This document shows positions 1 through 47,623 of a stretch of 64,000 bases of DNA, piece by piece. Positions within the stretch are counted from its first letter, which is position 1. Each line of letters opens with the position of its first letter. Origin of the DNA: an uncultured Alphaproteobacteria bacterium (lineage in GTDB: Bacteria; Pseudomonadota; Alphaproteobacteria; Rhizobiales; Beijerinckiaceae); the NCBI GenBank assembly GCA_963812775.1, contig CAWEWH010000008.1, positions 60,468-124,467 on the forward strand, read 5' to 3'. A program made the translations under genes and the position numbers. The notes under the pieces were generated by a model. It ran no database searches. It was not told the origin of the DNA and was given only the letters and a program-made list of their open reading frames with translations.

Positions 1-101
1 TTGTTGCCCGCTTCGCGCAGATCGGGCGCCAGGTTCCCGTCGATGAAGGCGCGCACCTCCTCGCGGAAGGCGGCGTCCTCTTTGCTGAGAGCGAGCTGCA
101 T
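1..101 (-). CDS. acyl-CoA dehydrogenase, N-terminal fragment; the gene runs off the window start
   Basis: Minus-strand translation from the ATG at 101 reads MQLALSKEDAAFREEVRAFIDGNLAPDLREAGN, a typical acyl-CoA dehydrogenase N-terminus. It is masked in the ORF track by a spurious 846-aa plus-strand ORF. Confidence 0.5.
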   Translation of the reverse strand, partial: MQLALSKEDAAFREEVRAFIDGNLAPDLREAGN

Positions 102-433
102 GGAGCGTCCTGAACGGGCTTCAAGAGACGTGCCGCCAGACTCTCATAGACTTCAACAAACTCCAAATCGTCAGACCATCTTGTTTCGGCGCGCCGAGGG
201 AGATGGGTGTGCTTTGATGCGCCAAGGCGCGCGCGTTGGTCCGCAGTGCGGACGGCACGCGCGAGCCGGCACTCTGCAAGGGACGGCATGGCGTGCGATG
301 TCCTGGGGCAGCGCCACCATCTCGGCCTCATGCGACGAGGCCCCGAAGCGCACGCGAGCATTGCCGGCGGCTTGGCGAATCCGCAAGCCGTGCCATAAGG
401 GGCGATCACGCTTGCGGTGTGGGAACGCCATCC

Positions 434-1669
434 ATGCGGCTCGAGACCGGGGGAAGATCCGAGCTGCTGCGCCGCATCGCCTTCACGCTCTGCGCGCTCG
501 TCGTCTACCGCGCCGCGACGCTGGTTCCGTTGCCAGGCATCAACCCGCTGGCATGGGCGGAGCTTGTGAAATCCCAAGCGGGCGGGGTTCTCGGACAAGC
601 CAGCGCCCTCTCCGGCGGCGCGGTCAGCCGCTTGGCCATCGTCTCGCTCGGCATCCTGCCGTTCATCTCGGCCGCCGTTCTCGTCCAGCTCGCCGGCATC
701 TTGTCCACCTCGTTGAGGGAATTCAGCCGACAGGGACGCCACGGACGCGCCATCATCGACCGCACGACCCGCGTCCTTGCCGTCTTCCTGGCGGCCATCC
801 AGGCCTATGCCGTCGCGGTAGGGCTCGAAGGTGTCGGCGGCGTTGTCAGCGAGCCGGGCGCTCTGTTCCGCGTGTCGACAGTGCTCACCCTTGTCGCCGG
901 AACCATGCTCGTTGTCTGGCTCGCCGACCAGATCACCTTGCGTGGCATCGGCAACGGGCTTGCGCTCATCCTCTTCACCGCCGTCGTCGTCGAGATACCG
1001 AGCGCCGCCATCGAGACTCTCGCATTGAGTCAAAGCGGCTTCCTTTCAGGGCGGCACATCGCCGCCGCGGTGGCGTTCTGCGTCGCAATCGTCGTCCTAG
1101 CCGTGGTCATGGAGCGGGCCGAGCATTCCATCGCAATCCGCTACCGCAAGCCGGGCGTCGCCGACCCATCGGGAACAATGCCGTCTCGTCTCCGGGTGAA
1201 GCTCAATCCCGCCGGCATCATACCGGTGATCCTGGCGACGTGGAGCGGGCTGATTGTCCTCACGCTATTGAGCTTCGTCGATGGCCCGGCTTGGCTCATG
1301 TCCATCGTGGCTCAATTCGGTTACGGCCGCCCCGTCTATTGGTCGCTCTACAGCCTGCTCATCTTTCTCTTTGTCTTCTTCTATACGGCGTTTCTCCTCG
1401 ATCCGCAGCGGATCGCGGGAGACATCGCGAGGCGCGGCGGAGCCATCGAAGAGGCAGCATCGGTCGGAGACACGGCGCAGCGGCTCGACCACGCCGTCTC
1501 GCGCGCGACCTTCATGGGAGCCGCCTACCTGACCATCGTGTGCGTCGTGCCCGAGATGGTGATCCGCTATTTGGATATGCCGTTCTACGTCGGCGGGATG
1601 TCGCTGCTGATCGTCGTCTGCACGGTCCTCGACGTTGTCGATCGGGTGCGCGCCGAGCGCGCGAGGTAG
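434..1669 (+). CDS. SecY-family protein translocase subunit paralog (412 aa); not in the ribosomal-protein context
   Basis: It aligns along its whole length with E. coli SecY. The plug/TM2 region LSGGAVSRLAIVSLGILPFISAAVLVQL matches [28 protein letters not shown]. TM5 MLVVWLADQITLRGIGNGLALILF matches [23 protein letters not shown]. The C-terminal FFYTAF...PFYVGGMSLLIVV matches FFYTAL...PFYFGGTSLLIVV. I set the start at the in-frame ATG at 434 (MRLETGG...). Confidence 0.75.
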   Translation: MRLETGGRSELLRRIAFTLCALVVYRAATLVPLPGINPLAWAELVKSQAGGVLGQASALSGGAVSRLAIVSLGILPFISAAVLVQLAGILSTSLREFSRQGRHGRAIIDRTTRVLAVFLAAIQAYAVAVGLEGVGGVVSEPGALFRVSTVLTLVAGTMLVVWLADQITLRGIGNGLALILFTAVVVEIPSAAIETLALSQSGFLSGRHIAAAVAFCVAIVVLAVVMERAEHSIAIRYRKPGVADPSGTMPSRLRVKLNPAGIIPVILATWSGLIVLTLLSFVDGPAWLMSIVAQFGYGRPVYWSLYSLLIFLFVFFYTAFLLDPQRIAGDIARRGGAIEEAASVGDTAQRLDHAVSRATFMGAAYLTIVCVVPEMVIRYLDMPFYVGGMSLLIVVCTVLDVVDRVRAERAR

Positions 1670-1698
1670 GCCTGCCGCGCCAACGTGAGGATCGAGCC

Positions 1699-2310
1699 TC
1701 ACGCCGCCTTGCGCTTGTGCTCCAGCGCGGCGCGGATGAGCGGCATGCGATCGTTGCCGAAATACATGTCGTCCTTGTCGACGAAGATGGTGGGCGAGCC
1801 ATAGCCGCCGCGCGCCATCACTTCGTCGGTGTTGGCCTTCAGCTGGTCCTTGATGCCCTGCTGGGCGATGCCGGCGAAGAAGCGCGCCTCATCGATGCCG
1901 ACCTTGCGGCAGATGTCGGCCAGGACCTCGTCCTTGGAGATATCCTTGTCGTCGCCCCAATAGGCTTCGAAGGTGGCGCGCGCCAAGGGCACGAGCTTGC
2001 CGTCCGGCTCGACCAGGATGCAGCCGCGCATCGCCTTGACGCTGTTCACGGGGAACACTGTCGGCCGGTGCTTGATGCGCAGGCCCGCGACCCGCGCCCA
2101 GTCGCCGAGGTCCTTCTTGGCGTAGGCCTGCTTGGCCGGCACCGGTTTCTCGCGCGAATTGTAGACGCTCGGATTGATGGTGTTGAAGATGCCGCCCACC
2201 AGGATCGGGCGATAGCGGATGTCCTCGCCGAACTCCCGCGCCAGGGGTTGGAGATTGTGGAACGCCAGATACGTCCACGGACTCGAACAGTCGAAGAAGA
2301 ACTCGATCAT
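1699..2310 (-). CDS. 2-hydroxychromene-2-carboxylate isomerase / DsbA-like thioredoxin-fold protein
   Basis: MIEFFFDCSSPWTYLAFHNL... carries the CxxP/CSSPW thioredoxin-fold motif of the HCCA-isomerase family. Its ATG overlaps the upstream GST stop (ATGA), which indicates translational coupling. Confidence 0.7.
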   Translation of the reverse strand: MIEFFFDCSSPWTYLAFHNLQPLAREFGEDIRYRPILVGGIFNTINPSVYNSREKPVPAKQAYAKKDLGDWARVAGLRIKHRPTVFPVNSVKAMRGCILVEPDGKLVPLARATFEAYWGDDKDISKDEVLADICRKVGIDEARFFAGIAQQGIKDQLKANTDEVMARGGYGSPTIFVDKDDMYFGNDRMPLIRAALEHKRKAA

Positions 2311-3014
2311 CGTTGCACACTCGCTGCCGTCTGGCCGAAGAGGATTTTCTTGGCGTCGTCGCTCATGCCCGATGAGGTGCGGCCGCGCCAGTCCTTGCCG
2401 ACCGCCATGCCCCGCTCGACGCCGGGCCGCACCCGCATGGTGGCAAACCAGCGCTTCACGTTCGGGAACCTGTCGATGTCGACCTGCTGGGCCTTGTGGG
2501 TGACGACCCAGGGGAACGAGGCCATGTCGGCGATGGAATAGTCGCCCGCGACCCAGGCGCCGGTCCTGGCAAGCTGCGCATCGAGCACACCATAGAGCCG
2601 GTCGGTTTCGTCGCCGTAGCGCTTGATCGCATAGGGGATCTTCTCGGGCGCATAGAGCTTGAAATGGCCGTTCTGGCCAAGCATCGGGCCGAGCCCGCCC
2701 ATCTGCCACATCACCCATTGGATGACGCTGAAGCGGCCGCGCAAGTCCTTCGGCAGGAACTTCCCCGTCTTCTCGGCGAGATAGATGAGAATGGCGCCCG
2801 TCTCGAACACGGCGACCGGCTCGCCGCCGCCCGGCGGATCGTGATCGATCATGGCCGGCATGCGGTTGTTGGGACTGATCTTGAGGAAGTCAGGCTTGAA
2901 CTGATCGCCCTTGCCGATATTCACCGGCACGAGCGAGTACGGGAGGCTGCACTCCTCCAGCATGATGCTGATCTTCCAGCCGTTCGGCGTCGGCCAATAA
3001 TGGAGCTCGATCAT
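2307..3014 (-). CDS. glutathione S-transferase (Nu-class, YghU/YfcG-like)
   Basis: MIELHYWPTPNGWKISIMLEE... with an N-terminal GST thioredoxin fold and a C-terminal alpha domain, 235 aa. Confidence 0.75.
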   Translation of the reverse strand: MIELHYWPTPNGWKISIMLEECSLPYSLVPVNIGKGDQFKPDFLKISPNNRMPAMIDHDPPGGGEPVAVFETGAILIYLAEKTGKFLPKDLRGRFSVIQWVMWQMGGLGPMLGQNGHFKLYAPEKIPYAIKRYGDETDRLYGVLDAQLARTGAWVAGDYSIADMASFPWVVTHKAQQVDIDRFPNVKRWFATMRVRPGVERGMAVGKDWRGRTSSGMSDDAKKILFGQTAASVQR

Positions 3015-4890: not shown

Positions 4891-5748
4891 ATGGCAAGTC
4901 AGGACAGGATGAGCAAAATGCAAACCGAGCGAGCCAATCTGGACCCCAAGGGTGGGACCAAGGTGAATTTCGAACGCGTCAAGCTGGATATGGAAGAGCA
5001 GGTGGCCGTCCTGAAGTTCAACCACCCGGAGGTGTTGAACGCCGTCTCGGCCGAGATGCTCGGCGGCCTGAAGGACGCCCTCGATTTCGTCGAGGACCAA
5101 AGCGGCGCGCGCTGCCTGGTGATCACCGGCGAGGGCCGCGCCTTCTGCGCCGGCGCCAACCTGCAGGGCCGCGGCCAGCAGGGCAATCGCCGCGATCCAG
5201 GCGCCACCCTGGAGACAGGCTACCACCCGATCCTGCGCCGACTGCGCAATCTGCCCATGCCGATCGTCACCGCCGTCAACGGGACGGCGGCCGGCGTCGG
5301 CATGAGCTTCGCGCTTATGGGCGACATGGTGCTGGTGGCGCGCTCGGCCTATTTCCTGCAGGCTTTTCGCCGCATCGGCCTGGTGCCGGACGGCGGCTCC
5401 ACCTGGATCCTGCCGCGCCTCGTCGGCCGCGCCCGCGCCATGGAACTGTCGCTCATGGGCGAGCGGCTGCCGGCCGAGACGGCGCTGCAATGGGGACTGA
5501 TCAACCGCGTCTATGACGACGCGGCCCTGATGGACGAGGCGATGAAGCTGGCGCGCGATCTCGCCAACGGCCCGACCGTGGCGCTGAGCCTCATCCGCCG
5601 CCTCTATTGGGAGAGCCCCGAGAATTCCTACGAGCAGCAGCTCGATCTGGAGCGGCAATCGCAGAAGATCGCCGGCAACAGCGAGGATGCGCGCGAAGGC
5701 GTCACCGCCTTCCTCGAGAAGCGCCCGGCGCAGTTCAAGGGACGGTGA
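4891..5748 (+). CDS. enoyl-CoA hydratase/isomerase family protein
   Basis: VITGEGRAFCAGANL crotonase motif. The start is ambiguous among in-frame ATGs at 4891, 4909 and 4918. Confidence 0.75.
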   Translation: MASQDRMSKMQTERANLDPKGGTKVNFERVKLDMEEQVAVLKFNHPEVLNAVSAEMLGGLKDALDFVEDQSGARCLVITGEGRAFCAGANLQGRGQQGNRRDPGATLETGYHPILRRLRNLPMPIVTAVNGTAAGVGMSFALMGDMVLVARSAYFLQAFRRIGLVPDGGSTWILPRLVGRARAMELSLMGERLPAETALQWGLINRVYDDAALMDEAMKLARDLANGPTVALSLIRRLYWESPENSYEQQLDLERQSQKIAGNSEDAREGVTAFLEKRPAQFKGR

Positions 5749-8752: not shown

Positions 8753-9871
8753 ATGAACTTCGATTTTTCCGACGACCTGAAGATGCTGCGCCAGGAGGCC
8801 AAGAAATTCCTCACCGAGCGCTCGCCGCCGGCGGCGGCGCGGCGCATCCTCGAAGGCCCCGAGCCTTACGACAAGGCGCTCTTCGACGAGATGGCCAAGA
8901 TGGGTTGGACGGGCGCCGCGATCCCCGAGGAATTCGGCGGCGCCGGGCTCGGTCATCTGGCGCTTTGCGTGCTGGCCGAGGAAATCGGTTATGCGGTCGC
9001 CCCGGTGCCGTTCTCGTCGTCCGTCTATCTCGCCACCGAAGCGCTGCTTCTCGCCGGCAGCAACGAGCAGAAGAAGAAGTGGTTGCCGAAGCTCGCCTCC
9101 GGCGAAGTCATCGGCACCCTCGCCATGGCGGAAGTGCCGCCGGTCTCCGACCCGCGCCGGCTGCGCACCACGGTCGACGGCGGCAAGGTGAACGGCACCA
9201 AGGTGCCCGTGCCGGACGGCGACGTGGCCGATATTGCGGTCGTGGTCGGGCGCTCCGATCGTGGCGTCAGCCTCGGGCTCGTCGACCTCAAGGGCGCGGG
9301 CGTCAAGCGCGAAGCCGTCACCACGGTCGATCCGACGCGCTCGCATGCCCGCGTCAGTTTCGACAACGCCGCCGCCGAGCCGCTCGGCGCGCCGGCCGAC
9401 GGCCAGGCGCTCTTGCGCAAGCTGCTCGATCGTGCCGCCGTGCTCATCGCCTTCGAGCAGGTGGGCGGCGCCCAGGCGGCCCTCGACATGGCCTGCAATT
9501 ATGCCCGCGAGCGCTATGCCTTCGGGCGTCCCATCGGCTCGTTCCAGGCCATCAAGCACAAGCTCGCCGACATCTATGTGTCGACGGAGCTGGCGCGCTC
9601 CAACGCCTATTACGGCGCCTGGGCGCTGTCGACTGACGCCAAGGAGCTGCCCATCGCCGCGAGCGCGGCGCGCGCCTCTGCCAGCGACGCCTACTGGCAC
9701 GCCGCCAAGGAGAACATCCAGACGCATGGCGGCATGGGCTACACGTGGCAGTTCGACTGCCAGTTCTACTTCCGCCGCGCCAAGCTCTTGGCGTTGTCGC
9801 TGGGCAGCGCGCGTGAATGGAAAGACCGGCTGATCAGCGAGCTCGAGACGCAGAACCGGGCCGCCGCCTGA
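8753..9871 (+). CDS. acyl-CoA dehydrogenase family protein (372 aa)
   Basis: Acyl-CoA dehydrogenase N, middle and C domains (GGMGYTWQFDCQFYFRRAK near the C-terminus). Confidence 0.8.
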   Translation: MNFDFSDDLKMLRQEAKKFLTERSPPAAARRILEGPEPYDKALFDEMAKMGWTGAAIPEEFGGAGLGHLALCVLAEEIGYAVAPVPFSSSVYLATEALLLAGSNEQKKKWLPKLASGEVIGTLAMAEVPPVSDPRRLRTTVDGGKVNGTKVPVPDGDVADIAVVVGRSDRGVSLGLVDLKGAGVKREAVTTVDPTRSHARVSFDNAAAEPLGAPADGQALLRKLLDRAAVLIAFEQVGGAQAALDMACNYARERYAFGRPIGSFQAIKHKLADIYVSTELARSNAYYGAWALSTDAKELPIAASAARASASDAYWHAAKENIQTHGGMGYTWQFDCQFYFRRAKLLALSLGSAREWKDRLISELETQNRAAA

Positions 9872-9881
9872 GGAGGGCACG

Positions 9882-11114
9882 ATGGATTTTGACGACACTC
9901 CCGAGGAAGCCGTGTACCGGGCCAAGGCGCGTGCCTTTCTCGACGCCAACGCCAAGCGCGAGGTCGGCGTCGTGCAGGGCTACCGCGCCGGCCACGACAA
10001 GCCCGACGCGCTGAAGTGCGCCAAGGATTGGCAGGCCAGGAAGGCTGCCGCCGGCTATGCCGGCATCACCTTGCCGAAGGAATGGGGCGGCCAGGCGGGC
10101 ACGGCTATCGAGCAGGTCATCTTCAACCAGGAAGAGGCCAACTACGACGTCCCGCGCGGTTTCTTCACCATCGGCATCGGCATGTGCCTGCCCACCATCG
10201 GCACGTGGGGTACACAGGCCCAGCGCGACAGCCACATCCCCAAAATGCTCACCGCCGAGGAGGTGTGGTGCCAGCTCTTCTCGGAGCCGGCCGGCGGCTC
10301 CGATCTCGCGGCGTTGCGCACGCGTGCCGTTCGCGACGGCGACGAATGGGTCGTCAACGGCTCGAAAATCTGGACCTCCGGCGCCCATTACAGCGACTGG
10401 GGCATCCTCGTGGCGCGCACGGACCCCAACGTTCCGAAGCATGAGGGTCTGACCTTCTTCTTCCTGTCGATGAAGTCTCCAGGCATCGAGATCAGGCCGA
10501 TCAAGCAGATGTCGGGGGCATCGAACTTCAACGAGGTGTTCTTCACCGACGTGCGCATCCCGGACAGCCAGCGGCTCGGGCCCGTGGGCGCCGGCTGGAA
10601 GGTGGCCATCACCACCCTCATGAACGAGCGCACGGTGGCGGGTGGTGCCGGGCCCACGGCTGAAGATCTGCTCGAACTCGCCCGCCACATCGAGCTCGAG
10701 GATGGGCCGGCCATCAAGAACAAGGCGGTGCGCGAGAAGATCGCCGACTGGTATCTCAAGTATCAGGGGCTGAAGTTCACGAAATTCCGCTCCATGACGT
10801 CGCTGTCGCGGGGCGACACGCCAGGTCCCGAGGCCTCGATCGGCAAGCTGGTCAGCGCCCCCATGACGCAGGACATCGCCGCCTATGCGCTTGATCTCTA
10901 CGGCATGTCGGGCTCCATCATGAACGGCGACGACATGCCCATGAGGGACGTGTTCCAGGAGGCGCTGCTCTATTCGCCCGGCATGCGCATCGCCGGCGGC
11001 ACCGACGAGGTGATGCGCAACATCATCGCCGAGCGCGTGCTGAAGCTGCCGCAGGATGCGCGCGTCGACAAAGGCATTCCCTTCAAGGACGTGCCGACGG
11101 GACCGCGCCAGTAG
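9882..11114 (+). CDS. acyl-CoA dehydrogenase family protein (410 aa), copy A of a tandem pair
   Basis: Acyl-CoA dehydrogenase fold; it starts 10 nt after the upstream dehydrogenase stop. Confidence 0.8.
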   Translation: MDFDDTPEEAVYRAKARAFLDANAKREVGVVQGYRAGHDKPDALKCAKDWQARKAAAGYAGITLPKEWGGQAGTAIEQVIFNQEEANYDVPRGFFTIGIGMCLPTIGTWGTQAQRDSHIPKMLTAEEVWCQLFSEPAGGSDLAALRTRAVRDGDEWVVNGSKIWTSGAHYSDWGILVARTDPNVPKHEGLTFFFLSMKSPGIEIRPIKQMSGASNFNEVFFTDVRIPDSQRLGPVGAGWKVAITTLMNERTVAGGAGPTAEDLLELARHIELEDGPAIKNKAVREKIADWYLKYQGLKFTKFRSMTSLSRGDTPGPEASIGKLVSAPMTQDIAAYALDLYGMSGSIMNGDDMPMRDVFQEALLYSPGMRIAGGTDEVMRNIIAERVLKLPQDARVDKGIPFKDVPTGPRQ

Positions 11115-11166
11115 GGGTCTTCACCCTTCCCCCGAGGGGAGTGTGAAGAACAGAGAGGCCAGGAAC

Positions 11167-12399
11167 ATGGACTTCGAAGATACCGCCCAAGAGGCAAAAT
11201 TTCGTGCCGAGGTGCGCGCCTTCCTCGACGCCAACGCCAAGCGCAAGGATGCGTCCGCCGTGACCGGTTATCGCGCCGGCCACGACCGTCCGGAGGCCCT
11301 GACGCGCGCCAAGGAGTGGCAGGCCAAGAAGAGCAAGGCCGGCTATGCCGGCATCACCTTGCCGAAGGAATGGGGTGGCCAGGGCGGCACGCCCATCCAG
11401 CAGGTGATTTTCGACCAGGAAGAGCAGAACTACCAGGTGCCCCGCGGCTTCTTCGACATCGGCATCGGCATGTGCGTGCCAACCATCGGCACCTGGGGCA
11501 CTCAGGCTCAGCGCGACCGGCACATCCCCGCGACCTTGTCGGCCGCCGAGGTGTGGTGCCAGCTCTTCTCGGAACCGGCCGGCGGCTCCGATCTCGCTGC
11601 GCTACGCACCCGCGCCGTCCGCGACGGTGACGAGTGGGTCGTCAACGGCTCGAAAATCTGGACGTCGGGTGCTCACTACAGCGACTGGGGCATTCTCGTC
11701 ACGCGCACCGACCCCAACGTGCCCAAGCACGCCGGCCTCACCTTCTTCTTCCTGTCGATGAAGTCGCCCGGTATCGAGATCAGGCCGATCAAGCAGATGT
11801 CGGGGGCGTCCAACTTCAACGAGGTGTTCTTCACCGACGTGCGCATTCCCGATAGCCAGCGGCTCGGCCCGGTCGGGGCCGGCTGGAAGGTGTCGATCAC
11901 GACGCTCATGAACGAGCGCTTCACTGTCGGCGGCTTCGGGCCTGACGCCTCGGACCTCTTCGAGCTTGCCCGGCACGTGGAACTCGAGGACGGGCCGGCA
12001 ATCAGGAACAAGGCCGTACGCGACAAGATCGCCGACTGGTACCTCAAGCATCAGGGTCTGAAATACACGAAGTTCCGCACCATGACGGCGCTGTCGAAAG
12101 GCGCGACGCCCGGACCGGAGGCGTCGATCGGCAAGCTGGTCTCCGCCCCGGCCATGCAGGACATCGCCGCCTACGCGCTCGATCTCATGGGCATGTCGGG
12201 CGCCTTGATCGAGACCGACGAGATGCCCATGAGCGACGTGTTTCAGCAGGCGGTGCTCTACTCGCCGGCCTTGCGCATCGCCGGCGGCACCGACGAGGTC
12301 ATGCGCAACATCATCGCCGAGCGCGTGCTCAAGCTGCCGCAGGACGCGCGCGTCGACAAAGGCATCCCGTTCAAGGATGTGCCGACCGGCCCGCGGTGA
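11167..12399 (+). CDS. acyl-CoA dehydrogenase family protein (410 aa), copy B, roughly 85% identical to copy A
   Basis: The start at the in-frame ATG at 11167 (MDFEDTAQEAKF...) is inferred from its collinear paralogy with copy A. Confidence 0.8.
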   Translation: MDFEDTAQEAKFRAEVRAFLDANAKRKDASAVTGYRAGHDRPEALTRAKEWQAKKSKAGYAGITLPKEWGGQGGTPIQQVIFDQEEQNYQVPRGFFDIGIGMCVPTIGTWGTQAQRDRHIPATLSAAEVWCQLFSEPAGGSDLAALRTRAVRDGDEWVVNGSKIWTSGAHYSDWGILVTRTDPNVPKHAGLTFFFLSMKSPGIEIRPIKQMSGASNFNEVFFTDVRIPDSQRLGPVGAGWKVSITTLMNERFTVGGFGPDASDLFELARHVELEDGPAIRNKAVRDKIADWYLKHQGLKYTKFRTMTALSKGATPGPEASIGKLVSAPAMQDIAAYALDLMGMSGALIETDEMPMSDVFQQAVLYSPALRIAGGTDEVMRNIIAERVLKLPQDARVDKGIPFKDVPTGPR

Positions 12400-13586: not shown

Positions 13587-14075
13587 TCACTCCTCCTTGT
13601 ATCCGTATTCCGGCGTGTCCTTGTCGTTGCCGTAATATTTGTACGGCAGGAATTTGCCGTGCATGGTGATCTTGACGCGGTCGCCCTTGGGATTGGGCAG
13701 ACGCTCCATCTGCATGTCGAAATCGATGGCCGACATGATGCCGTCGCCGAACTCTTCCTGGATCAATTCCTTCCAGGTGGTGCCGTAGACCTGCACGAGC
13801 TCGTAGAAGCGATAGATCAGCGGATCGGTCGGCGGGCCGGGCGGCAGTGATCCGCGATAGGGCGCCTCGTTGAGCAGCGCCTCCTCGCTCTTGCTCAGCC
13901 CGAACAGTTTTGCGGCGCGCTTGGCCTGCGGCTTGGTCAGCTTCATCTGCCCAAGACATGCGGCGCTGATCAGGATCGGCGAATAGCCGCCGATCTGCTT
14001 GGCGATCTCGGCCCAGGTCAGGCCCTTCTCCCGCTTGATGTCGAGAATCTTCTCGGTGAGGTCTGTCCGCTGCAT
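13587..14075 (-). CDS. cynS: cyanate hydratase (cyanase)
   Basis: 162 aa with an N-terminal HTH (LTWAEIAKQIGGYSP) and a C-terminal cyanate-lyase domain; it closely resembles CynS. Confidence 0.85.
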   Translation of the reverse strand: MQRTDLTEKILDIKREKGLTWAEIAKQIGGYSPILISAACLGQMKLTKPQAKRAAKLFGLSKSEEALLNEAPYRGSLPPGPPTDPLIYRFYELVQVYGTTWKELIQEEFGDGIMSAIDFDMQMERLPNPKGDRVKITMHGKFLPYKYYGNDKDTPEYGYKEE

Positions 14076-14117
14076 GGATGCTCTCTCCTTGCGTCTTGGC
14101 GTTGACGGATTGGTTCA

Positions 14118-15032
14118 TCAGGACGCGGCGAGCTTCAGCCGCGGCATCTCGGCCTCCGCGGCCTTGCCCAAAACCTGGAGCCCCGCCTGTCCCGGCCGGA
14201 CGGCCGGCGGATGCCGGCGATCGAATCCCGGCGGCGGCGCGTCGCGGAATGTGCGGCTGCGCGTGACCAGGAAATCGATGAGGTGGTTGCGGATGGCGTA
14301 GTAGTCCGGGTGGTGGTGGAAATCGTCGCGCCGCCGGTCCGCCGGCAGCGGATTGACCACCATCTCGGCGATCATGGCGCCGGGCCCGTTGGTCATCAGG
14401 AGGATGCGGTCGGCGAGGAATATCGCCTCGTCAACGTCGTGGGTGATCATGAACACTGTCTGGCCTGTGTCGCGGCAGATGCGCCGCGCTTCTTCCTGCA
14501 GCGTGCCGCGGGTGAGCGCATCAAGCGCCGAGAACGGCTCGTCCATGAGCAGGATTTTCGGCTCGATGGACAGCGCCCGGGCGATGCCGACGCGCTGCTT
14601 CATGCCGCCCGAGAGCGCGGCCGGGTGCTTTGCCTCGGAGCCGGAGAGACCAACCTTGGCGATGGCGGCCTGGGCACGCCGATGCACCTCGTCGCGCTTG
14701 GCCTTGCGCCAGCGCGACGACACCGCGTAGGCGACGTTGCCGAGCACCGTGCGCCACGGCAACAGCGCGTGGCCCTGGAAGATGACGGCGCGGTCGAGGC
14801 TCGGCCCCTCGATGGCCTGGCCGTCGACCACGACGACGCCCTCGCTCGGCGCGTCGAGGCCGGCCAGGATGTTGAGCACCGTCGTCTTGCCGCAGCCGGA
14901 ATGGCCGATGACGCACACGAACTCGCCGCGCGCCATCGAGAACCAAAGATCCTCGAACACGGCCACCGGCTGGCCACCCGGCGACGGAAAGCGCTTGGCG
15001 ATGCCCTCGATGGAGATGAACTTGGTGCTCAT
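14118..15032 (-). CDS. ABC transporter ATP-binding protein (nitrate/sulfonate/cyanate NrtD/CynD type)
   Basis: Walker [10 protein letters not shown], signature LSGGMKQRV, Walker [12 protein letters not shown]. Confidence 0.85.
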
Positions 15033-15041
15033 TGCCGCGGC

Positions 15042-15881
15042 CTATTCCGGATAGGTCACGAGGCGGGCGAAGCGCGCCAGCGCCTGGTCGAGCAACATGC
15101 CGACAAGGCCGATCACCAGGATCGAGGTGATGACGTTGGTGATCGAGAGGTTGTTCCACTCGTTCCATACGAAGTAGCCGATGCCGGTGCCGCCAACCAG
15201 CATCTCGGCTGCCACGATGACCAGCCAGGCGATGCCGATGGAGATGCGCATGCCGGTGACGATGGTCGGCGCCGCGGCCGGCAGGATGACCGTGAAGGCG
15301 CGCCTGATCGGCCCGACCTCCAGCGTGCGCGCCACGTTGAGCCACTCGCGCCGCACGCTTGCCACCCCGAAGGCCGTGTTGATGAGCATCGGCCACAACG
15401 AGCAAATGAAGATGACGAAGATCGACGAGATGCTGGAATCCTTGATGGTGTAGAGCGCCAGCGGCATCCAGGCGAGAGGCGACACCGGCTTCATCACCTG
15501 GATGAACGGATCGAGCGCCCGGCTCATCAGCGGCGACATGCCGATGAGGAAGCCGATGGGGATCGCCACCAGGACGGCGATGAGGTAGCCGATGGCAACG
15601 CGGCCGACCGAATAGGCAAGTTGAATGCCGATGCCCTTGTCGTTGGCGCCTTTGACGTAGAACGGGTCCTTGACGTGGCCCCAGATGGTGGCCGCCACGT
15701 CGACGGGCCCGGGCATTGCCGACTTGCCCTGCGTGGCGGTGGCGCCCATGAGCTTGGCGTATTCCGGGTCGACCTTCATGGCGGTGCCGCCGCCCGAGAC
15801 GCCGATCTGCCAGGCGGTCAGAAACACCACGAGCAACATGAGCGAGACGAGGCTCGCCCGGAAGGCCAGCGATCGCGCCAT
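15042..15881 (-). CDS. ABC transporter permease (NrtB/CynB type)
   Basis: 279 aa from MARSLAFRAS...; it ends in a binding-protein-dependent inner-membrane component motif. Confidence 0.8.
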   Translation of the reverse strand: MARSLAFRASLVSLMLLVVFLTAWQIGVSGGGTAMKVDPEYAKLMGATATQGKSAMPGPVDVAATIWGHVKDPFYVKGANDKGIGIQLAYSVGRVAIGYLIAVLVAIPIGFLIGMSPLMSRALDPFIQVMKPVSPLAWMPLALYTIKDSSISSIFVIFICSLWPMLINTAFGVASVRREWLNVARTLEVGPIRRAFTVILPAAAPTIVTGMRISIGIAWLVIVAAEMLVGGTGIGYFVWNEWNNLSITNVITSILVIGLVGMLLDQALARFARLVTYPE

Positions 15882-15883
15882 GG

Positions 15884-17095
15884 TCAGACCCGCTTGATCG
15901 CGAAGCTCTTGAGATATTCGTCGGGCTTCGAGGGATCGAAGGGCTTGCCCATCACCGAGAAGGATTTCGACGTGGTGGTGGGCGGCGTCAGTCCCGCCTC
16001 CTTCATGAGCTTGGCCGCATCGGTGGCGAGGAACACCTGCTGGGCCACCGCCTTGTAGTCCACGTCGCCCTTGATCTGGCCCCAGCGCTTCATCTGAGTG
16101 AGGATCCAGATGGCGAACAACTCCCACGGGAAGGGATCGAAGTCGATGCGGTTGGGGTCCTTGCGGATGTTGCCGAGCCCGTCCGCGAAGGTGCCGGTGA
16201 GCACCTGCTCGACCACGGTGGGCGGCTGGTTGAGATAGTTGGCCGGCGCGATCGCCTCGGCGATCTGCTTGCGGTTCTCCTGCTTGGTTGCAAAGGCGGT
16301 GGCTTCGATGATCGACTTCAGGAGCGCCGCGTAGGTGTTGGGCATCTGAGTGACGAACTCCCGCGATGCCGCAAAGGCGCAGCACGGGTGCCCGTCCCAG
16401 ATCTCCTTCGACAACGTGTGGATGAAGCCGACGCCGTCATAGACGGCGCGCTGGTTGACCGGGTCGGGCGCCAGGAAGCCGTCGATATTGTCGGCCCTGA
16501 GATTGGCCACCATCTCGGGCGGCGGCACGGCACGGATCTGCACGTCGGTATCCGGATCGATGCCGTGCTCGGCGAGGTAGTAGCGCAAGAGATAGTTGTG
16601 CATCGAGTAGTCGAACGGCACCGCGAACTTGAATCCCTTCCAGCCCTTGGGGTCGCGCTTGTCCTTGTGCCGGATGGCGAGCGTGATGGCCTGGCCGTTG
16701 ATGTTCTCGACCGCCGGCATGGTGTACGGAATGGCGTTGGAACCGACGCCCAGCGAGATGGCGAGCGGCATCGGCGACAGCATGTGGGCGGCGTCGTATT
16801 CCTTGTTCAGCGTCTTGTCGCGGATCACCGCCCATCCCGCCGTCTTCACCACTTCGACGTTGAGACCCTGCTTGGAGTAGAAGCCCATGGGGGCCGCCAT
16901 GATGATCGGTGTCGCGCAGGTGATGGGGATGAAGCCGACCTTGAGGTCCTTCTTCTCGAGTGCGGCACCCTGCGCGAAGGCGTCGGTCACGCCGCGCAGC
17001 GGCAGGAACTGCGATATGGCGGCGAGCGCCGTCGATGCGCCGACCGTCTTCAGCAAAGCGCGCCGTGTTGCATCCTGCGGGAAGAGGGCGCGCAT
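15884..17095 (-). CDS. ABC transporter substrate-binding protein (NrtA/CynA-like) with a Tat signal
   Basis: The start MRALFPQDATRRALLKTVGASTALAAISQFLP has a twin-arginine motif. It is NrtA/SsuA-like. The listed ORF extends upstream, but that extension is probably spurious. Confidence 0.75.
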   Translation of the reverse strand: MRALFPQDATRRALLKTVGASTALAAISQFLPLRGVTDAFAQGAALEKKDLKVGFIPITCATPIIMAAPMGFYSKQGLNVEVVKTAGWAVIRDKTLNKEYDAAHMLSPMPLAISLGVGSNAIPYTMPAVENINGQAITLAIRHKDKRDPKGWKGFKFAVPFDYSMHNYLLRYYLAEHGIDPDTDVQIRAVPPPEMVANLRADNIDGFLAPDPVNQRAVYDGVGFIHTLSKEIWDGHPCCAFAASREFVTQMPNTYAALLKSIIEATAFATKQENRKQIAEAIAPANYLNQPPTVVEQVLTGTFADGLGNIRKDPNRIDFDPFPWELFAIWILTQMKRWGQIKGDVDYKAVAQQVFLATDAAKLMKEAGLTPPTTTSKSFSVMGKPFDPSKPDEYLKSFAIKRV

Positions 17096-17504
17096 GACCG
17101 CGCCGTTGACCACGCCCTCAAATCGCCGGTCCTCGCTCGCAACCGCCTCGGCCACGAACTTTGCTCGCGCCTCGCCGTCGTGTTCGGCCTGCGAGCCATG
17201 CAGGCCGCACGGACAGGAGCGGCCGAGCGGCCGGCCCGCGGCAAATGCGTCGTCGAACGTGGACATGGACAGCTTCCCCTATGTTTGTTGAGGCGAGGGG
17301 GAGCAACGGCTGTGCCAATGTGTGCACGACGCGATCATTGCGGCCGGCTGCCAAAGGACTGAGCAGCCAGAACGGCTTAGCCGCACCGGCGGCGCGGACG
17401 GCGCCTAAAACTCAAGCACCTTTGGGTAAATTGTATGCAAGATTCGGTTCCGCAAGCCGCCTTTGAGGGGGAGCGAATGGCGGCCCGAAAACTCGCGAAC
17501 CGCC

Positions 17505-29392: not shown

Positions 29393-29707
29393 ATGAAATT
29401 CCGTCCATTGCACGACCGCGTGGTCGTTCGCCGGCTGGAAAGCGAAGAGAAGACCAAGGGCGGCATCATCATTCCCGACACCGCCAAGGAGAAGCCGCAA
29501 GAGGGCGAGATCGTCGCCGTCGGTCCGGGCGGCCGCGACGAAAACGGCAAGCTCATTCCCATCGACGTGAAGCCGGGCGACCGCGTCCTTTTCGGCAAGT
29601 GGTCGGGCACCGAGGTCAAGATCGACGGCGAAGAGCTCCTCATCATGAAGGAGTCCGACATCATGGGCGTCCTCGAGGGGACGGTCGCCAAGAAGAAGGC
29701 CGCCTGA
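29393..29707 (+). CDS. groES: co-chaperonin GroES
   Basis: [46 protein letters not shown]... Confidence 0.95.
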
Positions 29708-29750: not shown

Positions 29751-31394
<1,644 letters not shown>

Positions 31395-32611: not shown

Positions 32612-32943
32612 GACACATCTCCTTCTTGGCCCGCGGCGATCTGCTGCCGCGCGGCCGGCTTCGTTGAGGCCAAGGACGTGAGGTCCCGGACGCGTCTCCC
32701 CTTAGAGACGGCGGGCCTGGGCTTGAGCTCGCACCATGACAGGCGTGCGCGCACGCACCGCGCCGAAGCGCGGTGGCACGAACGCTCAACCTGCCATGCG
32801 CGCGGGCGGTATCCGCCCCGGCGCAGAGCCGGCATTTAGGTGTCTGGTACGGACGAGGAGCGAAGGGCTCGACGGCCGGACCGCGACTGAAGCGCGCGTC
32901 CGGTCCCCCTTCAGGTGGAATTCAGCTTAAGAGGCTGAACCGG

Positions 32944-33017
32944 AGCGTAGAGCGGGAATCGAACCCGCGACCCGATGATTGGCAGTCATCTGCTCTGACC
33001 AACTGAGCTATCCTCGC
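32944..33017 (-). tRNA. tRNA-Gly (anticodon GCC)
   Basis: Minus strand: GCGAGGATAGCTCAGTTGGTCAGAGCAGATGACTGCCAATCATCGGGTCGCGGGTTCGATTCCCGCTCTACGCT. It has a GCTC/GAGC D-stem, a GATGA/TCATC anticodon stem with loop CTGCCAA, and a GCGGG/CCCGC T-stem with TTCGATT. Acceptor pair 4:69 is an A-A mismatch and CCA is not encoded. Confidence 0.7.
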
Positions 33018-42409: not shown

Positions 42410-42611
42410 TATCTCCTTGATCGGCCGGCATATAGCGCCGCCCGGGAGGGCGAAACAAGGGTGGTCAAGGGCGGCCTTTTCGGGCAGAAGTCGCCAAGAT
42501 GTCGCCAAGATGCCGCCACGACGGCCATGACATGACGGCCATTGACATGACGCCGGCTCGCATCGACAGCCTCGGGCTGGCGTAAGCGCGGCAGAACCCA
42601 CGGAGACCCAG

Positions 42612-44726
42612 GTGAAAGAACGCAGCGGAATCTTGACACTGGCGCTCGTCGTTGCCGCCTTTTCGATTGTCGCTCTTCTTGTCTCCGCCTTCGCCGCGAA
42701 ATCCCTGCCGCTCTACGTGTCGGTGAGCGGCCTCGCTCTGGCCGGCATCCTCTATGCCGCGCGCGGCATCTCGCCCTATGTGCGCGTCTTCATCATCATG
42801 TACGCGTTCGGTTACCTCGGAATGGGGACCCTGGGGCTGCTCTCGGCGCTGGGCTGGCTGCCGGCCATCGTCGAGGCGATGCGACCGCCGGATTTCTCCG
42901 CCACGGCGGCGGCGGTCTTCGCCGCGATCGTCTACGGCGTCTCGTTCCTGCCGGTCATTCGCCGCATCACCGATATGGCCGATCCCTACTATCAATCCGA
43001 CGAGCCGGCGACGCGCGCCACGGGCGCCTTCAAGTGGATGGGCAACACTGAAGGGCAGATCGGCCAACGTCTCGTCGCCCTGTCGATCTTCATCAGCTTT
43101 GCCCAGGTGGCGATGAACATCAGGGTCAATCTCTGGTACCGCGACCTGTTCAACGCGCTCCAAGACAAGAACGCCGACGCCTTCTGGTATCAGCTCCTCG
43201 GCGTCTTCGTGCCCCTCGCCACGGTGTGGATCATCATTGGCGTCTATGACGTGTTCGTCGATTATTCGCTGTGGATCCGCTGGCGCGCCTGGCTGACCAA
43301 GAAGACGTATGGGCGCTGGCTCGGCCACGGCACGCACTATCGCGTTTCGCTGGCCGGCGACGGCACCGACAATCCCGACCAGCGCATCCAATACGACATC
43401 AATCAATTCGTGCAGCAGACGATGAGTTTCTCGATCCGCCTCATGTCTCAGGCGGCGACGCTGGTGTCGTTCATCGTCATCCTGTGGGGGCTGTCACGCG
43501 ACTTCATCATCCCGGGCACGGATTCCGTCATTCCCGGGCTGCTTGTCTGGATGGTCATCGCCTGGGCGCTCATGGGTACCTGGCTGACGCACCTCATCGG
43601 CCGCAAGCTCATCGCCCTCGATTTTCATCAGGAGCAAGTCGAGGCCGATTTCCGTTTCTCGCTGGCGCGCTTGCGCGAATATACCGAGCAGGTGGCGCTG
43701 CTGCGCGGCGAGCGGGCGGAGGAGGCGCGGCTCGGCCACAGCTTCAGCGCCATCATCGCCAACTTCCTGCAGATCATCAACCGACGCATGAAGATCACCG
43801 CCTTCACGGGCGGCTACAACCAGTCCAGCGTCGTCTTCCCCTACATCCTGGCCGCGCCCTCGTTCTTCCTCGGCAAGATCACCCTCGGCGTGTTCCAGCA
43901 GACGGCGTCGGCCTTCAATCGGGTTGACACGGCGCTGTCGTTCTTCGTCAACGCCTACACGTCGCTCGCCGCCTACAAGGCGACGACCGAGCGCCTCGCC
44001 ACGTTCAACGAGTCGATGCGGCGCGCCGAAAGCCTCGCCGGCGGCGGGGCGGGCGTGGCCATCAAGGATCACCGCGCCGGCGACGTGGTCATCGAGAACC
44101 TGAAGCTCGCCGTGCCCGACGGCCGCACCATCGTGCGGGCCGACGAACTCATCTTGCGCGGCGGCGAGAGCGCCCTGCTGACCGGCCCGTCTGGCTCGGG
44201 CAAGTCGACGCTGTTCCGGGCGCTTGCCGGCATCTGGCCGTATGCGTCGGGTGACGTGCGGGTGCCGGGCGGCAAGGACGTGATGCTGGTCCCGCAGCGG
44301 CCCTATCTGCCGACAGGGTCGCTGCGCACGGCGCTCGCCTATCCCGGCGTCGAGATGCAATATCCCGACGCGGAGATCCGTGGCGCGCTCGATGCGGTCG
44401 GCCTTGGCCAGCTCGCCGACAGCCTCGACGTCCACGACAATTGGGGACAGCGGCTGTCGGGCGGCGAGCAGCAGCGCGTCGCCATCGTGCGCGCGCTTCT
44501 CGCCAAGCCCGAATGGCTGTTCCTCGATGAATCCACCGCCTCCCTCGACGACGAGATGGAGGAGCAGGTCTACGCCACGCTGCGCCAGCGCTTGCCGGGC
44601 ACCACCATCGTGTCCATCGGTCACCGCGCGACCCTGAAGCGGCTGCATCAGCGGCGCATCGAGATGCGGCCGTCGGCCGACGGCACCTTCGCGCCGGCCG
44701 ACGCCAAGCAGGCGGTGCCGGCCTAG
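42612..44726 (+). CDS. ABC transporter permease/ATPase fusion of the SbmA/BacA-like (YddA / Rv1819c-type) family
   Basis: N-terminal SbmA_BacA-type membrane domain (NIRVNLWYRDLFNALQDKN...) and a C-terminal nucleotide-binding domain (Walker A GPSGSGKST, signature LSGGEQQRV). Confidence 0.8.
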   Translation: MKERSGILTLALVVAAFSIVALLVSAFAAKSLPLYVSVSGLALAGILYAARGISPYVRVFIIMYAFGYLGMGTLGLLSALGWLPAIVEAMRPPDFSATAAAVFAAIVYGVSFLPVIRRITDMADPYYQSDEPATRATGAFKWMGNTEGQIGQRLVALSIFISFAQVAMNIRVNLWYRDLFNALQDKNADAFWYQLLGVFVPLATVWIIIGVYDVFVDYSLWIRWRAWLTKKTYGRWLGHGTHYRVSLAGDGTDNPDQRIQYDINQFVQQTMSFSIRLMSQAATLVSFIVILWGLSRDFIIPGTDSVIPGLLVWMVIAWALMGTWLTHLIGRKLIALDFHQEQVEADFRFSLARLREYTEQVALLRGERAEEARLGHSFSAIIANFLQIINRRMKITAFTGGYNQSSVVFPYILAAPSFFLGKITLGVFQQTASAFNRVDTALSFFVNAYTSLAAYKATTERLATFNESMRRAESLAGGGAGVAIKDHRAGDVVIENLKLAVPDGRTIVRADELILRGGESALLTGPSGSGKSTLFRALAGIWPYASGDVRVPGGKDVMLVPQRPYLPTGSLRTALAYPGVEMQYPDAEIRGALDAVGLGQLADSLDVHDNWGQRLSGGEQQRVAIVRALLAKPEWLFLDESTASLDDEMEEQVYATLRQRLPGTTIVSIGHRATLKRLHQRRIEMRPSADGTFAPADAKQAVPA

Positions 44727-47000: not shown

Positions 47001-47003
47001 CGG

Positions 47004-47584
47004 CTAGATCGACCGGTCGAACACGATCTCGCCGTTCGGGCCTTTGAACACCAGGCGGCCGGCCACGAGGTCCCATTTCTGCGCCGTGCGCAGCGCCGTC
47101 AGGAACGCCGTCTCGGTGTCCATCAGCTCCTTGGCGCAGCTGCGCTTGGTGAAGGTGATCGGCCCGACCACGATGCCCTGCTGCTTCAGCGGGTAGGCGA
47201 CCGCCGTGTAGGCGTTGCAGCCGCCGAAGCCACGGGCGCGGAACTGCTTGTCGAGGGTGAAGCCTGGTTTCTCGGCGCTGGTGAACGGCTTGCCGTTGAG
47301 GCTGACGGCCACATAGGTATTGCCGAGCGGGAACTGCTTGTCATCTTTCTTGGAAGGCGGCGGGGTGGAATCTCGGGGCCCTTGTTCTCCTGTTCCTTGG
47401 GGAAACCCTTCTGCGCATCGGCCGGCAGCGCCAGCGCGACGGCCAGGAGAGCCGGCAAGACAGAGATGAGAATTCGGCTCGCGATCATGGCAAGTGCCTC
47501 TACCCACGGCACTCTACGAAATGAGGCCCCCGTCCGGCAACGGTGCGATAGGCCGCGAGCGTGGCAATTCGGGGGCGGGGGCAT
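47004..47584 (-). pseudogene. META-domain (HslJ-like) secreted protein, frameshifted in a C-run near 47370-47400
   Basis: The signal peptide MIASRILISVLPALLAVALALPADAQ is in ORF 47186..47584. The META domain (FPLGNTYVAVSLNGKPF...RLVFKGPNGEIVFDRS) is in ORF 47004..47507, shifted by one base. Confidence 0.55.
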
Positions 47585-47623
47585 TGCGGCGTCGTGCCTG
47601 CGCTTGTCGACGCAACACCGGCT

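Follow-up and report, generated by a model that had tools for sequence, protein, structure and literature searches.

The window analysed here is a whole stretch of 64,000 nucleotides (contig CAWEWH010000008.1 of assembly GCA_963812775.1, positions 60,468 to 124,467 of the forward strand) from an uncultured soil alphaproteobacterium placed by GTDB in the Beijerinckiaceae. Close to its left end, an earlier note on this DNA had pointed out a gene for a SecY homologue standing outside the ribosomal-protein operon. We call the gene product SecY-prime (SecY') and conclude that it is very probably a second, non-housekeeping SecY. It would come from a rare family of paralogs, carried by uncultured Hyphomicrobiales, which began as a tandem copy in the spc operon and, in the lineage of the window, later moved elsewhere. 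The features of the locus and of its relatives are collected in Table 1.

A short SecY homologue at the left end of the window

The open reading frame (ORF) that encloses the gene runs from 236 to 1669 on the forward strand and, read from the ATG at 434, encodes 411 amino acids followed by a stop codon. The earlier note was right in seeing a full-length SecY homologue, but its length of 412 residues had included the stop. We take ATG-434 as the start because the metagenomic homologue P0001, which is 94 % identical, likewise has 411 residues and because indels are confined to the spacer: in the comparison with the close relative L157, six frame-breaking indels fall in the 333 bp upstream of the gene and none in the 1,233 bp of coding sequence (CDS). 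The 330 bp of upstream non-coding DNA that had been proposed thus hold up as a real spacer.

The protein matches the Pfam profile PF00344 (SecY/Sec61-alpha) with 232.5 bits (E 9.5e-69, cut-off 32.2) from position 2 to 306 of its 306 positions, and phmmer matched the E. coli SecY chains at E 1e-75. An AlphaFold (AF2) model with a pLDDT (predicted local distance difference test) of 67 resembles bacterial SecY structures with TM-scores of 0.76-0.82, and the hydropathy profile agrees with the hourglass fold of ten transmembrane (TM) helices, with a predicted hairpin at residues 230-256. The match over the whole profile and the SecY fold bear out the description of a full-length homologue with ten TM helices, and the window protein is an unambiguous member of the SecY family. 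A pseudogene, or a chance ORF in high-GC DNA, is ruled out by the profile and fold matches, by a ratio of non-synonymous to synonymous rates (omega) below 1, and by a CDS free of indels beside a spacer rich in them. ORF length alone is no evidence of coding in this DNA, and genes were chosen by a GC content at third codon positions (GC3) above 0.78. Spurious ORFs of up to 846 residues (1..2541, + strand, frame 1) cross real genes on both strands, as expected at 65-70 % GC.

Table 1. Coordinates of the SecY' locus, of segments within the gene and of the related tandem pairs. Positions are those of the window unless a contig is named; residue substitutions follow E. coli numbering.
Feature	Position	Strand	Basis or remark
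SecY' CDS	434..1669	+	ORF call, translation, Pfam, TIGR00967, fold, no indels vs L157, omega 0.35
Acyl-CoA dehydrogenase gene, 5' end	1..100	-	Synteny; conserved neighbour, context only, no evidence of a functional link
Intergenic spacer, common with the divergent acyl-CoA dehydrogenase gene; in-frame extension 236-433 non-coding	101..433		Six frame-breaking indels vs L157; 333-bp gap also on the P0001 contig
Promoter-like block, conserved: TTGGCG 372-377, 16-nt spacer, CATAAG 394-399	369..412	+	Comparative alignment
Plug (TM2a) and TM2b block, residues 56-86; F64 replaced by A, M66 by A, F67 by L; I82 and I86 kept as V/I	599..691	+	Alignment
C4 cytoplasmic hairpin, residues 229-256; tip 'YRKPGVADPSGTMPSRLRVK' for canonical 'YPKRQVGNRMFEGQSSHLPLK'; equivalents of R251, Q252, G254 and R256 gone	1118..1201	+	
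C5 loop tip, residues 335-346; 'GGAIEEAASVGD' for canonical 'GGFIPGIRPGER'; R357, P358 and G359 gone	1436..1471	+	
Truncated C-terminus, 7 residues past TM10; basic tail '...HQYEGLIKKSKLRGRR' absent	1634..1669	+	
DsbA-family gene, convergent; first gene of the GST/ECH/SDR block	1699..2310	-	JGI: 2-hydroxychromene-2-carboxylate isomerase; context only
Tandem secY-secY' pairs, uncultured Xanthobacteraceae-type metagenome-assembled genomes	L073 8673-11245; L074 8673-11248; L159 4673-7239; L158 4465-7239; L078 1-1507		

Relatives, tandem origin and rate of evolution

A search of 5.8 billion proteins returned eight close relatives, all metagenomic, with 64-94 % identity and 411-421 residues. Beyond them identity falls abruptly to about 45 %, at canonical alphaproteobacterial SecYs of 442-446 residues. 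With 99 of these canonical proteins the window protein has an identity of 41-46 %, and with E. coli SecY one of 35 %. Among themselves the canonical proteins are 60-100 % identical (median 76 %), and their identity to E. coli SecY is 56 %. The NCBIfam equivalog model for SecY, TIGR00967, is passed marginally, at 263.3 bits for a cut-off of 253.6. The GroEL of the same window is 88-90 % identical to that of named Hyphomicrobiales genera (Chelatococcus, Microvirga, Alsobacter), so that the host is an ordinary member of the order in which only the SecY-like gene is aberrant. The groES-groEL operon itself lies at 29393-29707 and 29757-31394 on the + strand, and its GroEL, which reaches no more than 90 % with any named genus, is matched at 99 % by three proteins from JGI metagenomes, marking the host as an uncultured lineage of the Hyphomicrobiales. 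The housekeeping gene has its place in the spc operon, with rplO and adk; the window gene adjoins an acyl-CoA dehydrogenase gene and a block of DsbA-family, glutathione S-transferase (GST) and enoyl-CoA hydratase (ECH) genes. This metabolic neighbourhood and the low identity to canonical SecYs sustain the view of a stand-alone paralog, and the window gene is almost certainly not the housekeeping SecY.

The earlier note had allowed that this might be the only secY of the organism, in a rearranged core region, which would make it a highly derived housekeeping copy. The score just over the TIGR00967 cut-off and a window that holds no further secY are what such a copy would show, and we nevertheless regard it as scarcely credible: the identity to relatives is far under the orthologue range, R357 (E. 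coli numbering, here and below) and the C-terminal tail are absent, and the gene evolves three to five times faster than its neighbours. Its clade, moreover, nests inside paralogs that coexist with and adjoin canonical SecYs, and GroEL marks the host as an ordinary Hyphomicrobiales member.

Nor is SecY' of the Gram-positive SecY2 type, as the earlier note had also held. What it shares with the accessory Sec system is that a genome would hold an additional SecY which is divergent and looks non-essential. The two SecY2 models, TIGR02920 and NF009082, are both missed (133.8 vs 249.6 bits and 136.5 vs 353 bits), no SecA2 or Asp genes turned up among the large window ORFs or the listed genes of the syntenic contigs, and the nesting of the clade among alphaproteobacterial SecYs points to an independent duplication inside the Alphaproteobacteria; together these exclude an accessory Sec origin. 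SecY2 sequences were left out of the tree described below, and the non-affiliation is read from the model scores and from the nesting with Xanthobacteraceae-type SecYs.

Scattered among the canonical matches of the protein search were further short SecYs of 398-422 residues. All of them share with the window clade the absence of the first ~19 residues, of the basic C-tail '...HQYEGLIKKSKLRGRR' and of the arginine of cytoplasmic loop C5 (R357). Five contigs (L073, L074, L158, L159 and L078) have, within the spc operon, a canonical secY for 443 residues with a short copy immediately behind it and adk next (rplO-secY-secY'-adk). Three of these contigs are long (L073 1.06 Mb, L158 590 kb, L159 257 kb). 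On two more, L079 and L082, a short copy lies directly before adk. Four secY/secY' junctions are fully resolved; three have a 4-bp overlap (ATGA), which suggests translational coupling, and L158 has a 204-bp spacer instead. Inside one genome the canonical and the short copy are about 55 % identical, and because the genomic context shows them side by side, the paralogy of the short family is settled.

In a neighbour-joining (NJ) tree the 31 short sequences, window clade included, form one group in 300 of 300 bootstrap replicates, and in 285 of 300 the canonical SecYs with which this group is nested are those of the Xanthobacteraceae type. The window clade is recovered in 200 of 200 replicates and has the longest branch. 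Long-branch attraction would not be the whole cause of the grouping, since derived substitutions are common to the short family and the window clade (S89A, S188A, I191L, S282W and 'VVCT' in TM10). The tandem paralogs (P0078 on L073, P0081 on L074, P0379 on L158, P0370 on L159) thus share with the window clade the truncations, the loss of R357, these substitutions and membership of one clade. They differ in being placed immediately behind the canonical secY and in retaining the C4 arginines and a 'PG(V/I)xPGE' frame in loop C5, where the canonical 'PGIRPG' has become 'PG(V/I)(A/E/D/T)PG'; the window clade is relocated and has neither the PG frame nor the basic residues of C4.

Two further observations concern the family at large. 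The metagenomic proteins P0098 and P0101 (400 residues) have ends of the short type and a central stretch of ~300 residues that is 85-97 % identical to the canonical SecY P0018, which suggests a mosaic formed by gene conversion within a tandem pair or, alternatively, a truncation that arose independently and recently. On contig L076 (3541-4803) a SecY' of 420 residues from a different subclade, P0061, stands alone between genes for an AraC/GyrI-like regulator and a DUF2147 protein, and because this is a second, independent stand-alone case, SecY' has left the spc operon more than once.

The family is rare. When 1.84 billion representatives were searched exhaustively with a profile, the window clade fell into a single 50 % cluster, and about 28 more clusters had the full signature. 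None of 70 canonical secY loci in GTDB alphaproteobacterial species representatives is accompanied by a second copy, and a scan of the same collection for close orthologues, with peptide patterns specific to the window protein, met canonical SecYs alone (70 loci, all with the IRPG motif and the tail). A scan of metagenomes contributed L077, an incomplete member of the clade, and a small number of tandem copies; the remaining loci, 27-36 % identical, presumably encode SecYs from unrelated lineages. All members that were checked are metagenomic and labelled just 'preprotein translocase subunit SecY', and in the literature on alphaproteobacterial or tandem secY duplicates we found no paper that describes the family. 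The earlier statement that an extra SecY is not a standard feature of such genomes agrees with this rarity. The gene is no isolated oddity, however, but the relocated member of a family usually found directly after the canonical secY. The caveat in the earlier note that the family might prove common and already annotated applies only in part: annotation pipelines do give the members a name, whereas the family itself is rare. SecY-prime is apparently an undescribed paralog family, which goes back to a tandem duplication next to the housekeeping secY.

The gene is maintained under purifying selection, which is relaxed and much weaker than that on any housekeeping SecY, and this is a trait of the whole family. 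Against L157 (synonymous divergence, dS, 0.09) there are 28.7 synonymous and 28.3 non-synonymous differences, giving an omega of 0.35 (binomial P = 9e-5 against neutrality); in the same comparison the adjacent DsbA-family protein is unchanged and the omega of GST is 0.08. Against L072 (dS 0.62) SecY' is 68 % identical with an omega of 0.36, and the neighbouring genes are 90-94 % identical with omegas of 0.16-0.17. Over the flanking genes omega thus ranges from 0 to 0.17, and SecY' evolves 3-5 times faster than they do. When tandem genomes are compared with one another, identity is 87-89 % for canonical SecY (omega 0.09-0.15) and 41-55 % for SecY' of the same pairs (omega 0.39-0.54), and SecY' changes 5-6.5 times faster than the canonical secY beside it.

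Among the rivals to a functional accessory SecY, which we rank from drift toward loss through an independent translocon and a conflict decoy down to a sole SecY, the first has to be weighed here. SecY' could be a duplicate on its way out, which after losing essential contacts is only weakly constrained and now has a minor function or none. Its omega beside that of the flanking genes, its rate beside that of canonical secY, a GC3 of 0.80 beside 0.87-0.89 in the neighbours, the loss of residues that are 95-100 % conserved in canonical SecYs (R357 included) and the rarity of the family are all in keeping with slow non-functionalisation. We nonetheless consider it unlikely, since omega is significantly below 1 and is so at two levels of divergence, and since the ORF is intact, with in-frame indels only, in nine clade sequences down to 64 % identity, while the adjoining spacer gathers frame-breaking indels. 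In addition, 181 residues are invariant in these nine sequences, including those of the pore and of the TM cores, the block upstream of the gene is conserved, and family members with a mutual identity as low as 41-55 % are still of full length, which speaks for long persistence.

Neighbouring genes and upstream region

The neighbours are those listed in the earlier note, a divergent acyl-CoA dehydrogenase gene on one side and, on the other, minus-strand genes for a DsbA-family protein, GST and ECH, to which a short-chain dehydrogenase/reductase (SDR) gene can be added. The same chromosomal site is occupied in five clade contexts (the window, P0001, L072, the P0006 contig and L077), and the short contig L157 agrees over its extent. 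Along the clade the gene order is acyl-CoA dehydrogenase, a variable insert, SecY', a second variable insert and the DsbA-family/GST/ECH/SDR block. The inserts hold genes for fumarylacetoacetase, MarR and YkuD and one unannotated ORF, possibly luciferase-like by sequence. The shared site indicates vertical inheritance of a relocated gene, and nothing nearby is secretion-related. The DsbA-family protein is 100 % identical in L157 and 94 % in L072. It was considered as a 'DsbA-like' secretion partner and ruled out, being annotated by JGI as a metabolic isomerase in a GST/ECH/SDR catabolic block, and the genes inserted between SecY' and its neighbours being variable; we take the 2-hydroxychromene-2-carboxylate isomerase family to be cytoplasmic and not to include periplasmic disulfide oxidoreductases. 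On the L072 contig (ENA ERZ25039591 contig_164784) many genes are broken up, among them those for TctA, TctC, GST and SDR, and those for ECH and a methyltransferase are fused, a pattern usual for frameshift errors of long-read assembly; SecY' is nevertheless intact with 420 residues.

No SecA2, Asp, SecE/SecG-like, glycosyltransferase or serine-rich substrate gene was found among the Pfam-listed genes of the syntenic contigs or the large ORFs of the window, the small ORFs being unscanned; for SecA2 and Asp this agrees with what had been noted from the window. The largest ORFs (944, 727 and 655 residues), the only ones near the size of SecA, encode SbmA/BacA-type ABC transporters or an EAL-domain protein and no SecA. 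The two transporters are adjacent fusions of ABC_membrane_2 and ABC_tran (42546-44726 and 44865-47690, + strand) with products of 726 and 941 residues, and the larger has an additional C-terminal extension of ~290 residues with no Pfam match.

A 44-nt block upstream of the gene (369-412) is kept in the window, L157, L072 and L077 despite different upstream genes and a dS in the CDS of up to 0.6, and it is presumably the promoter of the SecY' gene itself. A scan for strict sigma-70 consensus promoters and terminators made no call upstream of the gene. In L072 (9985-10003) and L077 (~5005-5026) the start codon lies 6 nt past the -10-like hexamer CATAAG, which suggests that the mRNA is leaderless there. 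In the window (394-412) and in L157 this upstream ATG has become ATC and the start has moved 30 nt downstream; the N-terminus of the window protein is shorter because the change forces initiation at ATG-434. An Rfam scan found no RNA element near the gene, and a tRNA-Gly(GCC) at 32942-33017 on the minus strand is the sole Rfam or ARAGORN match in the 64-kb window.

Two other parts of the window may be recorded. On the minus strand, 13587-17278 holds a cyanase gene (cynS, 162 residues) beside an ABC-transporter ATPase and an ORF for 464 residues, possibly a substrate-binding protein, and looks like a cluster for cyanate/nitrate-type uptake and detoxification. On the plus strand, downstream of the ECH/SDR/methyltransferase block in what is apparently a fatty-acid or aromatic catabolic island, three successive ORFs lie at 8753-12399. 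The first, of 372 residues, is annotated by JGI as acyl-CoA dehydrogenase / AidB-like; the other two, of 427 and 452 residues from stop to stop, share the N-terminal motif MDF.DT..EA.(F/Y)R...RAF and an identical C-terminal motif KGIPFKDVPTGPR.

Remodelled residues and the possible role of SecY'

The protein was aligned with E. coli SecY and 96-99 canonical alphaproteobacterial SecYs, and the residues of pore and plug were read from these alignments and not from the structure model, in which the plug is unreliable. As the earlier note had it, the plug/TM2 block SGGAVSRLAIVSLGILPFISAAVLVQL is present (residues 60-86). The pore ring (I82, I86, I187, I191, I278 and I408) reads V/I, I, L, L, V/I and V/I in all nine clade members. 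On the cytoplasmic side the tip of the C4 hairpin, whose strands the structure model predicts at residues 230-238 and 248-256, is 'KPGVADPSGTMPSR' in the window protein where canonical SecYs have 'KRQVGNRMFEGQSSH', with the equivalents of both R251 and R256 gone. Loop C5 reads 'AIEEAASVG', the whole PGxRPG tip being absent: position 357 is arginine in 97 of 99 canonical SecYs and alanine or threonine in 9/9 sequences of the window clade. Both tails, reported before as missing, are shortened, with 11 residues ahead of the K20 equivalent (mostly 12-25, and up to ~49, in R357-bearing representatives) and 7 past TM10 (~10-37 in those representatives).

In 96 canonical alphaproteobacterial SecYs, 214 positions have a conservation of 95 % or more; the clade keeps 101 of them and fully replaces 80. 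Replacement is concentrated on the cytoplasmic side (45/79 vs 35/135 elsewhere; odds ratio 3.8, P = 9e-6), where it affects the N-tail (6/9), C2 (7/12), C4 (12/21), C5 (11/21) and C6 (7/10). Few or no positions are replaced in periplasmic loops P2-P4 (0/8), TM9 (0/9), TM1 (2/13) and TM10 (4/17), and the lateral-gate helices are more altered (TM7 7/15, TM2b 5/14). The earlier note had thought of a dedicated translocon or of a plug-variant regulator of Sec; the most telling change, however, is not in the plug but in the loss of cytoplasmic docking determinants, namely the C5 PGxRPG tip with R357, the basic residues of C4 and the C-tail.

Measured against housekeeping SecY (TIGR00967; E. coli SecY, PDB 5abb and 6r7l), SecY' belongs to the same superfamily and has in common the 10-TM fold, the plug helix, the hydrophobic ring of six pore residues, the GIGNG motif and 'PFYxGG' in TM10. 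It differs in its position outside the spc operon, its low identity, the missing N-terminal residues, basic C-tail, 'PGIRPG' and basic C4 tip, the replaced F64 and F67 of the plug, and an evolution that is 3-6 times faster. Position 357 is also the one altered in the C5 mutants of E. coli, R357E and the secY39 type. The mutants are loss-of-function alleles made in the laboratory, in cells that have no other SecY, whereas the change in SecY' is natural and fixed family-wide, and the accompanying substitutions in plug and lateral gate might compensate for it.

We favour as the best explanation overall an extra SecY' paralog with an accessory-channel role, to which we would give a probability of roughly 0.6. 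Because the fold, the pore ring, the plug helix and TM1, TM9 and TM10 are kept, SecY' probably still folds and enters the inner membrane as a 10-TM hourglass channel, where the SecE and SecG of the cell could be its partners; TM1, TM9 and TM10 lie, we assume, on the SecE-facing side of SecYEG. The C-terminal tail of SecY counts among its cytoplasmic docking determinants. With that tail, the C5 tip and the basic C4 tip gone or changed, neither SecA nor the complex of ribosome and FtsY would be expected to drive SecY' in the normal way. [quoted passage not shown] In somewhat more specific terms, SecY' may be a channel subunit of an accessory and dispensable kind, one that neither SecA nor a translating ribosome can drive directly, which we put forward tentatively and at rather less than even odds.

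Such a subunit could act beside canonical SecYEG or in hetero-oligomers with it, the canonical copy giving the docking site, and a defective SecY can be rescued in vitro by a linked wild-type copy (PMC3432775). Because the ancestral copy appears translationally coupled to secY, SecY and SecY' were presumably made together, and an accessory protomer would be the simplest model. Alternatively, SecY' could serve a narrow, low-flux task. The altered plug and lateral gate (TM2b, TM7) would be expected to bring different gating or substrate preference, and it may be speculated that a weakened plug offsets the plug-stabilising effect of R357 loss. In the lineage of the window the copy very probably moved to its metabolic neighbourhood, acquired or kept the promoter-like element and diverged further. 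The narrowest form of the proposal, which we hold to be doubtful, would make SecY-prime a natural 'non-docking' pore protomer, unable to engage SecA, FtsY or the ribosome itself and working only in SecYEG hetero-oligomers or with another cytosolic driver.

Several points weigh against an accessory channel of this kind, or against the steps that lead to it. The omega of 0.35 (0.4-0.5 in the tandem relatives) and the rarity of the family also fit drift toward loss, and across the five contexts no partner or substrate gene is conserved beside SecY' in the window clade. A canonical secY of the same genome was not seen directly, tblastn finding no second SecY homologue in the window, which covers 64 kb of a contig of 451,858 bp. 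The tree is an NJ tree only, in which long-branch attraction among fast copies is possible, and the pair P0098/P0101 carries the short signature and yet stays outside the clade. The AlphaFold model was built from a shallow alignment of 22 sequences, with a pLDDT below 50 in the plug region, so that confidence in it is moderate. As to mechanism, in one study R357E kept ribosome-induced gating (PMC3689939), so that losing only R357 would not necessarily prevent a ribosome from docking, and a single SecY copy suffices in vivo, the idea of hetero-oligomers resting on in vitro work with E. coli (PMC3432775).

The remodelled face could also be that of an independent, dedicated translocon, with SecE/SecG or other partners, another cytosolic driver and specific clients, following the logic of SecY2 or of plastid SCY2. 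The new cytoplasmic residues are themselves conserved in the clade (P240, G241, S343, D352/H353/A354 and an acidic 'IEEAAS' or 'LVGATS' tip), and for this reason a new interface fits better than decay. The changes in TM2b, TM7 and plug and the promoter-like element of its own point the same way. Two things make such a translocon improbable in our view: no SecA-, Asp-, SecE- or SecG-like or substrate gene occurs in the five contexts or the window ORFs that were covered, and the apparent translational coupling of the ancestral copy to canonical secY suggests joint action. Plastid SCY2 uses a dedicated SECA2, and Bacillus-type SecY2 duplicates show client specialisation and are paired with their own or the general SecA. 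SecY' has lost the SecA-coupling residue, and a second SecA or SecE is likewise absent from the window ORFs examined and the syntenic gene lists. Work on plastid SecY1E1 and SecY2E2 shows that duplicated SecYs can each come to handle part of the clients, SCY2 working with its own SecE2 (PMC8662606).

The retention of every conserved position in the periplasmic loops P2-P4, together with the fast evolution of the whole SecY' family, would suit a different role in conflict, in which SecY' is a decoy or a resistant spare that titrates or resists agents exploiting SecY. The import of two contact-dependent-inhibition (CDI) toxins into target cells is reported to be SecY-dependent (PMC7858069). This idea is purely speculative and very improbable, as no PADLOC defence model was matched, there is no defence island or mobile element, and the neighbours are metabolic and syntenic.

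The accessory-channel reading, which we prefer, has to be held together with the relaxed selection: the SecY' gene may do little, and all its members come from uncultured organisms. The gene for SecY is one of the most conserved in bacteria, usually single-copy and a routine phylogenetic marker. The extra SecYs in the literature that was searched are the Gram-positive SecY2, with SecA2 and Asp, and plastid SCY2; the Hyphomicrobiales family is separate from both. For annotation it calls for caution, two very different proteins both being named 'preprotein translocase subunit SecY', which affects marker phylogenies and estimates of completeness or contamination of metagenome-assembled genomes. 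The family appears to trace a path that starts with a tandem duplicate coupled to secY in translation and ends with a strongly remodelled gene at another site, under a promoter of its own, and it offers natural material for testing the role of cytoplasmic loops and of SecY oligomers in translocation. If SecY-prime were indeed a non-docking protomer, its existence would amount to a natural experiment, one that bears on the old debate over whether a second copy of SecY contributes to translocation, and the window clade would be the extreme end-point of the family, an independently transcribed, specialised channel.

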